Shown one piece after another: positions 29,960 through 32,900 of a stretch of DNA of 64,000 nt (position 1 is the first letter of the stretch; each line of letters begins with the position of its first letter). The stretch comes from Euglena gracilis (Eukaryota): contig CP154954.1 of the NCBI GenBank assembly GCA_039621445.1, positions 8,620,634 through 8,684,633 of the forward strand. Direction: 5' to 3'. The position numbers and the translations under genes were made by a program. Below the pieces are notes generated by a model. It saw only the letters and a list, made by a program, of their open reading frames with translations, was not told where the DNA came from and did no database searches.

Positions 29960-32900
29960 TTCTGGAGTGTGCTTCGCCCGCGTCCTCCCGGCCCGCCTCC
30001 CAGCCCTCCACCGGCGCACACAAGTGTGGCCGTGGCGGCGGCCTCACCGCGGAGGAGCAGGCGTCCCTCCAGGCCCAGTTCAAGGCGCTGGACCACAACC
30101 AGGGATTTTTTTAAGTTTGGACCCCGGGGGGGGTAGGGTGGGTGGGTCCGGCCGAGCCCCCCCCCCCCCCCCCCCCCCCCCGGGGGTCCCCCCCCGGAGG
30201 GGGGTGGGATATACTTTTCGGCGCTGCAGGCGCCGAAAAAATTCTATTTTTAGCATTTTTCGCGATTTTTCGGCCATTTTTTTTTTGTGGGTCCCCCGGG
30301 ACCCCCTCCCCCTCCCGGGGGGGGCCCCCAAGGAGGTGGGTGGGTGGGGGGGGCCCCCCCCCCCCCCCGGTCTTAAAAAAAACCCCTGACCACAACGGGG
30401 ACGGCGTGCTCAGCGAGAAGGAGTTCACAGACCCCATCTCGTACCTCCTCGGCGAACGCGTCGCCCTTCTCCTGTTCCGGGCGTTTGGCTGGGCCGCCCC
30501 GCAGACCGCGAATCCCTGTAGAGAGCGTGGGTATTGGAAGTGGTTTGAAGGTTCGTTGATTTGTTGGGCAATGTTCGATACTCATTCGATGCTCATTCAT
30601 TCTCATTCACAGTATGGTATATTTATACACATATATTTGAGTATTTATACACATATACAGTGTGCCAAGTAAATTTTCAGACCTTGAAAAAAATTGAAAA
30701 AATGATCCCCCCCCACACTCCTCAAAACCATCCTCAAACGCCTCCCAGAGTTGAGAGCACTGGTGGAGGAGTGCTTTGACAGGTGATTGAGACTGCTTAG
30801 AGCTTGATGGTATTGCAGAACAGCAGAAATACAATTTGGCACCAAGAGTTTTGCTGTAAAATTTGCCATTGCACAGGTTTGCACAAACAAAACGAGGACA
30901 TCGAAATGGATCGCTTTTGGTGAATCTCAATGGACTTCTCACAGACAAAGTTTTGGTGAAACTGGTAACCCCATCCACTTAGCAGTCCAAGAAAACTCAA
31001 TTTGAGAGCACAGAAGAAAAAAATGACAGGGGAGCCCATTTCAAGCTGTCAACCCCCGGATAGGCAATTGTACACGGAGCTTGATTAAAGCTGGATTGAA
31101 GTGAATGCGGTTTGCAAAGCTGTCTTTTCCCAAAAGGTCTTTGGTGGTGCCATCTGGCGCGAAGCAGTCACAATCGCCTGTCAAAACACTCCTCCACCAG
31201 TGCTCTCAACTCTGGGAGGCGATTGAGGATGGTATTGTGGAGTGTGGGGTGCCATCAATTTTTTTGATTTTTTCAGGGTCTGAAAATTTACTTGGCACTT
31301 GGGTCTGAAAATTTACTTTGCACGCTGTACATACACACATACCTACCTACCTACCTACCTACCTACCTACCTACCTACCTACCTACCTACCTACCTACCT
31401 ACCTACCTACCTACCTACCTACCTACCTACCTACCTACCTACCTACCTACCTACCCACCTACCTACCTACCTACCTACCTACCTACCTACCTACCTACCT
31501 ACCTACCTACCTACCTACCTACCTACCTACCTACCTACCTACCTACCTACCTACCTACCTACCTACCTACCTACCTACCTACCTACCTACCTACCTACCT
31601 ACCTACCTACCTACCTACCTACCTACCTACCTACCTACCTACCTACCTACCTACCTACCTACCCACATACATACGTACGTACGTACATACATACACACAC
31701 ATACATACATACACACACATACGTAAGAAAGCAAAACAACTGGCAAATGGAAGGGTCAGCACCAAGAATAATAAAGACATTTTAAACACAACCCAATGAT
31801 TTTGACCCCTGCAAAGTGTGCACCAACCTTTTTGGCCCTGACCCTTGCAAAGTAATTTGGGTAGTCCGAAATTATTTTCGGATCCATTTAAAAAGCATAT
31901 TTAGCATCAAATTTTGTAGAGATTATTAATTGGCAGCCCCATGCAATCGGAATAGCGACTCAGTGGCATGAGGAGGTGAGTATTAATGGTGTAGAATTAG
32001 GGTAACAATTTTCGTCTAAATTTTGGCAAATTCTTATTAAGGCGTAAATTTTGGCCTAAATTTTCGCCTAAAATTTGCAATTAGTCCTAAATAATAGTTC
32101 TGCCTAAATCTTGCCTAAATTTAGTCGAAAATCGTTACCCTAAGCGTATCGTATAAACCAGGCTTCTTTTTAAGTCACCTGACCCCCCGGAGGTGCTGGG
32201 TATACCTTTTCGGAAATTTTTGAAAATTGCCTTTAACGGGCCCGATTTTGGGGGGGAGGTCCCCGCCCCCCCCCCCCCCCCCCCGGGGGGGTCCCGCGCC
32301 ACCCTGGGTGGGTGGGGGGGACCCCCCCCCGGGGGTCTTAAAAAGAAGCCTGGTATAAACAACCTCCCCCATACTACTAGGGCCGCGGGGCCCTCTGGTA
32401 TGGGGCTGCCTAATAAATTGAAAAAGAAATAATATGTTCAATGCTTCTCTTTATCGGACAGCAAAGCGGTGTGGTATCCAAACCCCCCCCAAAAATAAGA
32501 CCGGAGGTCCATTTCATGGGTCGGTTGCTGGAGAGCCTGAGGGGGGGTCTTATTCATGGGGGGGTTCCATTTTATGGATTTTTGCTGGAAAATTTTTCGA
32601 CACCCCAAATTGTCCAAAAATGCCCCCCAAAATACCAATTTTCAAAAAATTCGGTATTTCACGCCAGACAAATAGGAGAAAATATGCTGAATTGTGTGAA
32701 AACTGTCCCAAAATGGCAGATTTACCCCCCAAAATGTCCCATTTTTCAAAAATCCGGCGCTTCGCGCCAGCAGGGGGGGACCTTATTTATGGGAGGGGTC
32801 CATTTCATGCATTTTTGCTCGGACCGGCCAGGGGGGCTTATTTTTGGGGGGGGTTTAGGATGGTTTTTTGTGCTTACCACATTTGGCACAATTCTCCAGA

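Follow-up and report, generated by a model that had tools for sequence, protein, structure and literature searches.

An EF-hand gene of Euglena gracilis, lying in the 64,000-nt stretch of DNA analysed here (contig CP154954.1, positions 8,620,634 to 8,684,633; hereafter the window, whose numbering is used throughout), carries in one of its exons a young non-autonomous DNA transposon. The insertion, a 289-bp hAT-like MITE (a miniature transposable element with inverted repeats) at 30100-30388, splits the EF-hand loop and has duplicated its 8-bp target, ACCACAAC. Transcripts of the filled gene copy are predicted to lose the element as a nonconventional intron of the euglenid type, by cuts measured from the stem that its own ends form and without leaving a scar. 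We give this reading a probability of roughly 0.6.

Read directly, the element starts with CAGGGATTTTTTTAAG and ends with CTTAAAAAAAACCCCTG, its inverted ends taking the form CAGG...CCTG, and a perfect copy of ACCACAAC adjoins it on either flank. A repeat search scored the direct repeat as 9 nt (GACCACAAC, 30091-30099 and 30388-30396) because the left copy is preceded by a G, which by coincidence is also the base that closes the element. The same search returned inverted arms of 32 nt at 30102-30133 and 30354-30385, 72% complementary, and the interior is rich in G/C homopolymers. In context the sequence runs gcg ctg gac cac aac, then the element, then accacaac ggg gac ggc gtg ctc agc gag aag gag ttc. 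The frame ttc aag gcg ctg gac cac aac continues inside the element as cag gga ttt ttt taa, and this in-frame stop (TAA, 30112-30114) closes the open reading frame (ORF) 29809..30114. Element and one duplication copy together measure 297 nt, or 99 codons, and excising 297 nt in silico rebuilds a canonical 12-residue EF-hand loop. A sequence-only reading of the window had described a 289-bp CAG...CTG element with a perfect duplication that splits an EF-hand loop and adds a TAA, and direct reading gives the same picture. An assembly artefact was considered and ruled out, since a misjoin would not give a perfect duplication, inverted ends and a matching empty site.

Two raw RNA runs (X21 and X24), the contig set X15 and the DNA contig set X1 were mapped on 29300-31330. 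X15 is taken as RNA from its zero depth in introns, and the counts of joints and loose ends given below are of those listed. A joint 30090>30388, which skips 297 nt and at which 9 letters fit either side, occurs in 9 X21 reads with 9 different starts, in 2 X24 reads, in one 1687-nt contig of X15 and in one 276-nt contig of X1. The X1 contig, at a depth of 76.2, connects 30004-30090 with 30388-30576. It represents genomic DNA with an empty site, because 89 nt of it beyond 30487 enter intron 2, where depth is zero in both X21 and X24. An empty site with a single ACCACAAC, which the sequence-only reading had named as a check on its account, is therefore present in the DNA contigs of X1. The insertion is recent, and another haplotype or paralogue keeps the empty site. 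The empty-site contig departs from the window at four exonic sites (30063, 30083, 30429 and 30468), of which three are synonymous and one is K>R, and at two positions in intron sequence. Upstream of the exon (29787-30033), X1 contains two haplotypes, one identical to the window at a depth of 28.9 and one with 9 differences in 184 nt at a depth of 31.2; over the EF-hand exon it shows the empty-site form only. Together with three or more haplotypes in the RNA, this pattern points to a polyploid genome or to a gene present in several diverged copies.

The ends of the element can be set against a published splicing code; here and below, statements credited to articles refer to the accessible parts of their texts. 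Knock-ins in E. gracilis define the code of nonconventional introns as 5'-N3CDG...CH'GN5-6|R, in which the 3-nt spacer is rigid and tolerates no change, the 5-nt spacer tolerates one additional base, pairing beside the triplets is required and the exon preferably begins with a purine (PMC12501133). Wholly artificial 50-nt sequences that obey this code were spliced in E. gracilis (PMC12501133). Minor junction rules add a pyrimidine before each cut, a purine after it and, further into the exon, A at base 2 and C at base 3 (PMC4770533). In the register 30097-30393, N3 is AAC, CAG occupies 30100-30102 (+4 to +6), CTG occupies 30386-30388 (-8 to -6) and N5 is ACCAC. The predicted downstream exon begins with a purine, the A at 30394 (AAC), and this register shows all the minor rules of PMC4770533. 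In the RNA fold (-192.3 kcal/mol, z = -2.8), the terminal stem begins with the CAG/CTG pair itself. CAGGG is paired with CCCUG in the minimum-free-energy fold and in the centroid fold; the former pairs the entire U run and AAG with CUUAAAAAAAA, and the centroid keeps most of that pairing. The claim that the element fits the N3CDG...CHGN5-6|R geometry thus holds for every item of the published code, from which it is predicted that the 30100 element should be spliced. A conventional intron was also considered and ruled out: GT-AG or GC-AG ends are absent from all 10 registers compatible with the repeat (0/10), in agreement with the earlier statement that usable GT/AG ends are missing.

On a transcript of the filled copy, the paired ends would form the stem from which the euglenid nonconventional machinery measures. 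Cuts would fall at 30096|30097, 3 nt before CAG, and at 30393|30394, 5 nt after CTG, and the exons would rejoin with one target copy, restoring the EF-hand loop. Such rejoining would be scarless because the two spacers, 3 and 5 nt, add up to the 8-bp duplication. The sequence-only reading had made the same calculation, that these cuts drop the element plus 8 nt, and its arithmetic is correct.

The host gene itself makes use of nonconventional splicing. RNA read matches end before 30039 and behind 30487, and their overhangs equal 29132-29161 and 33098-33125 exactly. The host exon (30039/30040-30487) less 297 nt is 151-152 nt long and encodes one EF-hand, and the next exon junction downstream builds a second EF-hand loop. 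Intron 1 is an RNA-supported nonconventional intron 60 nt upstream of the element in the same gene: it has no GT-AG, carries CAG at +4 to +6, and has GTG instead of CTG at -8 to -6, followed by five bases and G. Intron 2 shows neither GT-AG ends nor the CAG/CTG code, and is compatible with the roughly 39% of nonconventional introns that fall outside the published code. Transcripts of this EF-hand gene therefore go through the nonconventional splicing pathway, and RNA-supported introns of this sort identify their source as a euglenid.

The main rival to removal of the element is that the filled copy is a null allele, whose transcripts keep the element, run into the TAA and are degraded, while all scarless RNA comes from empty-site copies. 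Several observations favour this and weigh against splicing. The main RNA contig and most reads share the four exonic variants of the empty-site DNA contig: the 1687-nt contig of X15 has all four alternative letters, and in X21 the alternative letter is found in 9/11 reads at 30063, 12/14 at 30429 and 10/13 at 30468. At 30083 it is found in 3/9 reads only, a split from which it follows that at least three haplotypes are expressed. The empty-site haplotype alone can account for the joined RNA, so that the 9 and 2 joint reads need no splicing. At 30063 and 30083, X1 shows the alternative letters alone, and no run demonstrably contains the filled allele. Window-like letters make up just ~15-25% of reads, and these reads (2-3 per site) are not phased with the joint and may represent a window-like haplotype without the element in the RNA strain. 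A few reads do map within the final 200 nt of the element, where an X21 depth of 0.8-2.0 in the last three bins leaves room for one unspliced read. The introns assayed in the accessible parts of PMC12501133 were short, and none had C runs of 25 nt. An insertion this young, with its duplication still perfect, is moreover one on which selection may not have acted, and other gene copies can cover the function.

Against a null allele stand each tested cis requirement of the splicing code, all of them present in the element, and the distribution of the reads. Window-like letters occur in the RNA on both sides of the element (2/11, 2/14 and 3/13 reads in X21), and hence on both exon halves. X21 depth is 0 in the bin 30116-30183, with no read seen passing from the exon into the element, although, of the 9 reads that enter from the upstream exon (median loose end 32 nt), most reach ~118 nt beyond 30039 and would cover that bin if the element were retained. 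This zero depth speaks mildly for removal. As a rough argument from read length it favours transcripts in which the element is not retained, and splicing and a window-like haplotype without the element are indistinguishable by it. The X24 reads on the element carry foreign flanks (loose ends at 30338, 30368 and 30388) and therefore come from other loci, a second point mildly in favour of removal. Excised nonconventional introns occur as circular RNA (PMC11282704), and no back-joint of a circular intron was among the joints listed. On balance we regard the null allele as rather unlikely and retain removal of the element as a nonconventional intron. The sequence-only reading had gone further in describing the element as acting as an intron: the RNA at the variant sites carries mostly empty-site letters, so the intron role is a prediction. 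Its proposed check of RNA across 30096/30394 did yield a scarless joint, which may come from empty-site copies.

The element belongs to a larger set. At least ten CAGG...CCTG elements lie in the window (Table 1), all of which start with CAGG and end with CCTG, most of them with TTAAG ~12 nt inside. The relatives at 12160, 32159 and 40118 had been named earlier as insertions with differing duplications, and they bear this out with flank matches of 8/8, 8/8 and 7/8; missing from that list were the nearest relative, at 51417-51620, and five elements of other subfamilies. In-silico excision of ten other elements was also carried out, and a recognisable motif was restored only for the 30100 element. 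Whether excising the others restores an ORF carries no information, because GC-rich DNA has long chance open frames on both strands.

To what extent such ends and duplications arise by chance was assessed with every CAG...CTG pair 60-1500 bp apart in the window, requiring inverted-repeat identity of at least 13/16. This yielded 27 pairs. The flanking 8-bp repeat is perfect in 7/27 and has at most one mismatch in 9/27, and perfect flanking repeats of 5, 6, 7 or 9-12 nt are found in 0 of the 27. Among control pairs lacking an inverted repeat, at least 7/8 flank letters match in 21/27,396. Twenty Markov resamples gave a mean of 4.1 inverted-repeat pairs and 0 duplications. Flank identity of at least 6/8 rises with the inverted-repeat score, from 0.6% at 9/16 or less and 1.2-2.8% at 10-12/16 to 11.5%, 57%, 100% and 50% at 13, 14, 15 and 16/16 (n = 26, 7, 2 and 4). 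The end motif of the element has 4 matches against 0.17 expected, and 4 or more occurred in 0/100 shuffles. A chance origin of the ends and 8-bp duplications is excluded.

A 135-bp element at 20111-20245 has perfect 16/16 CAGGGAATTTCTTAAG ends without an adjoining 8-bp duplication; ACCTGGT flanks it on both sides, the left copy set off by an extra GAC, a pattern that may reflect an imprecise event or a footprint. Another inverted-repeat family, ending in CAGTGTGCCAA, has copies at 30658-31327 and 51656-51794. The former lies within intron 2 and forms a long nested hairpin of four inverted pairs, one inside another; its flanks agree at 6/8. For the MITE at 29226-29544, the summed word depth in DNA run X1 is ~9.8e5, compared with 30-90 for unique sequence. 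RNA reads on this MITE show many different flanks, and many copies must therefore be transcribed.

The hAT superfamily is marked by an 8-bp target duplication, by terminal inverted repeats beginning (C/T)A(G/A)NG and by the target consensus nTnnnnAn. Duplications of 8 bp also occur in the P, Merlin and Mutator-like superfamilies. Inverted repeats in all ten window copies start with CAGGG or CAGGC, the far end being complementary, and the ten target sites have T at position 2 in 6/10 and A at position 7 in 8/10. The 289-bp element is non-coding (with in-frame stops), multi-copy and polymorphic for insertion, and 16,737 contigs of DNA run X1 match the 2-kb stretch 29300-31330, mostly at its two MITEs. 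An origin in one of the other 8-bp superfamilies would keep the geometry and make the hAT label wrong. Such an origin is helped by the fact that 8-bp duplications are not exclusive to hAT, by the merely 6/10 sites with T at position 2, and by the Pfam result, which counts against the hAT label: transposase families had 0 matches among the 150 longest of 173 stop-to-stop ORFs (at least 100 aa, entropy at least 3.85). The CAGG start of all ten copies and the A at position 7 in 8/10 sites fit the hAT end and target consensuses and make another superfamily improbable. The label "hAT-like" is well supported for these elements, and the earlier assignment to a hAT-type MITE with an 8-bp duplication agrees both with the anatomy and with the fixed length of 8 in the window scan. 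Rfam gave 0 matches over the whole 64-kb window.

The target sites carry a preference that bears on the origin of the splicing code. Of the ten window duplications, 8/10 carry A at position 7 (P = 2e-4) and 9/10 carry C at position 8 (P = 8e-5); a pyrimidine at position 5 and a purine at position 6 are each found in 7/10. Published introns have a purine as first base of the downstream exon in 55/55, followed by A in 43/55 and then C in 30/55, and a pyrimidine before the cut in 49/55 (PMC4770533); the E. gracilis consensus has CCAGG at +3 to +7 and CCTG at -9 to -6 (PMC11170887). The target preference in the window matches the published exon-side junction consensus. That consensus is what would be expected, on the evidence of ten sites, if both copies began as one target and selection has kept the coding copy alone.

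If the duplication is numbered 1-8, both cuts lie between positions 5 and 6, the 5' cut in the left copy and the 3' cut in the right one, and so one copy remains. This geometric reading of the code, in which the spacers are parts of the duplication, is well supported. A purine as first exon base is provided by 7/10 window duplications on the + strand and by 5/10 on the - strand. The claim that a new insertion is a scarless intron from birth in either orientation consequently stands where position 6 of the duplication is a purine on the sense strand, and fails elsewhere. We infer that hAT-like insertions can turn into introns on insertion, given that purine. A broader proposal is that the euglenid nonconventional code is a hAT-like insertion as it appears at the RNA level, its ends being CAGG/CCTG, its spacers one duplication, and its weak exon-side pyrimidine|purine-A-C largely the target preference of the transposase, preserved in coding sequence. 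We advance it tentatively, at somewhat less than even odds. If true, active MITE families would make ready scarless introns wherever target position 6 is a purine, which would account for the nonconventional majority among Euglena introns.

A different source of an 8-nt repeat is double-strand-break repair, which has been proposed for a recently gained gapC intron of E. agilis with an 8-nt direct repeat (PMC4770533). Applied here, it would make the sequence and its flanking repeat products of repair and not of transposition. Neither inverted ends nor a constant length of 8 would follow from it. The element is a member of multi-copy families that have inverted ends in common, the ten window copies each have their own duplication, always of length 8, and do not share flanks, and the contigs of the DNA run pile up on the two MITEs of the 2-kb stretch. 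Break repair is thus highly implausible at this locus, and transposition is preferred.

The origin of euglenid nonconventional introns is a long-standing question. An origin from MITEs was first put forward in 2013 (PMC3935182) and taken up again in 2016, 2024 and 2025, without a named source element. At the time of the 2013 proposal, according to the accessible text, no transposable elements had been identified in euglenids (PMC3935182), and the origin is still described as unclear in PMC12501133. A 2024 review reads CAG/CTG as inverted repeats and calls the junction repeats "TSD-like" (PMC11282704). In E. agilis 71.8% of introns are nonconventional (PMC12501133). A share of 84.4% of introns is given as "slidable" (PMC12501133). 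The E. gracilis assembly paper assigns 4.6% to "DNA elements" and 32.7% to unclassified repeats (PMC11252322). Part of what the sequence-only reading presented as new, namely the inverted-repeat, TSD-like and 8-nt-repeat interpretations, had accordingly been published (PMC11282704, PMC4770533), and the hAT interpretation and the free copies appear new. In the main texts of articles outside subscription journals, we found no "hAT" label on Euglena introns, no statement that 3 + 5 equals the duplication, and no named family of free MITEs. The window offers candidate families, present as free copies whose 8-bp duplications are exact, a fresh insertion in an exon beside a surviving empty site, and, in the sum 3 + 5, a simple explanation of why the spacers of the code differ, 3 against 5 nt. 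The finding sharpens the existing MITE-origin hypothesis in a testable way and is no new kind of system; with existing tools, that hypothesis is now open to bench and genome-wide testing.

Among the remaining features of the window, intron 2 contains (TACC) x 89 at 31340-31694. Together with a 2.3-kb AC-rich array of period 4 (34991-37272), it explains the strong strand skew at 34-38 kb. The only Pfam matches among the 150 ORFs are a PIP5K fragment (~50159-50685) and an Abhydrolase_6 fragment (5809-6357), both with E ~1e-3. Such weak and fragmentary matches fit genes split into small exons.

Table 1. Coordinates of the EF-hand insertion, its host gene parts and related elements in the window
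Feature	Position	Strand	Details
Left 8-bp duplication copy, ACCACAAC	30092..30099	+	codons ..ac cac aac of the EF-hand loop
Non-autonomous hAT-like MITE, 289 bp	30100..30388	.	CAGG...CCTG ends; TAA 30112-30114; missing from the empty-site DNA contig
5' terminal inverted repeat	30100..30116	+	base-paired to the 3' end when folded as RNA
3' terminal inverted repeat	30372..30388	+	end motif, inverted-repeat scan, RNA fold
Right 8-bp duplication copy, ACCACAAC	30389..30396	+	direct reading, repeat search
Predicted nonconventional intron	30097..30393	+	one of 10 equivalent registers; published spacing
EF-hand exon, upstream part (entering helix, loop start)	30040..30096	+	RNA loose ends before 30039; 52-letter joint side
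EF-hand exon, downstream part (rest of loop, exiting helix)	30394..30487	+	RNA loose ends behind 30487
Intron 1, nonconventional	29163..30039	+	RNA-supported; boundary slides 1 nt
Intron 2	30488..33097	+	RNA-supported; boundary slides 1 nt; holds MITE 32159 and (TACC)n array
MITE related to the 30100 element	12160..12427	.	duplication GTAGGAGC, 8/8
MITE related to the 30100 element, within intron 2	32159..32352	.	duplication GTATAAAC, 8/8
MITE related to the 30100 element, weaker ends	40118..40281	.	duplication CCCCCCAC/CCCTCCAC, 7/8
MITE, closest relative of the 30100 element, same CAGGGATTT end	51417..51620	.	duplication TTGCCAAC/TTGCCGAC, 7/8
CAGG...CCTG MITE, other subfamily	13226..13647	.	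duplication CTGAGGAT, 8/8
CAGG...CCTG MITE, 114 bp, inverted repeat 16/16	20985..21098	.	duplication TCCCTTGC, 8/8
MITE of second subfamily, 319 bp, nested in intron 1, CAGGGCGGTCGTTAAGG ends	29226..29544	.	duplication GTTTCGAC, 8/8
CAGG...CCTG MITE	47728..48190	.	duplication GTGCTCAC, 8/8
CAGG...CCTG MITE	61035..61471	.	duplication ACCCCAAC/ACCCCAAT, 7/8

Among known systems, the closest are the euglenid nonconventional introns themselves. Like the predicted intron described here, they lack GT-AG, carry CAG at +4 to +6 and CTG at -8 to -6, form a stem inside these triplets and are cut between pyrimidine and purine, with a direct repeat that makes the boundary "slidable" (PMC12501133, PMC3935182, PMC4770533, PMC11170887). 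Unlike the euglenid introns described, the one predicted here is a recognisable multi-copy transposon whose 8-bp duplication is intact and whose empty site still exists. The E. agilis ACOI 323 gapC intron 4 shares with it the occurrence in one strain and the eight-nucleotide direct repeats at the junctions; in contrast to the present case, that intron was ascribed to double-strand-break repair, without a linked transposon family (PMC4770533).

Introners of Micromonas, Aureococcus, dinoflagellates and other groups are likewise short DNA transposons that have inverted ends and duplicate their target, and they become introns on insertion, the duplication supplying part of what splicing needs, as is proposed here (PMC11282704). 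However, introners carry or co-opt GT-AG sites and are spliceosomal (PMC11282704), whereas the element in the EF-hand exon has no GT-AG in any register. Its removal is predicted to be measured from a stem, with the duplication divided 5|3 by two fixed spacers. The 30100 element is introner-like in its working, but it is not an introner.

Within the hAT family there is also a parallel in maize, where, as Giroux and co-workers reportedly described in 1994, the spliceosome removes Dissociation as a de novo intron, using cryptic sites and in most cases imprecisely. As in the EF-hand gene, a non-autonomous hAT-family element lies in an exon; its removal from RNA is reported in maize and predicted in Euglena. 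Unlike the usually imprecise splicing said to occur through cryptic sites in Dissociation, removal of the Euglena element would be exact and set by the ends of the transposon.

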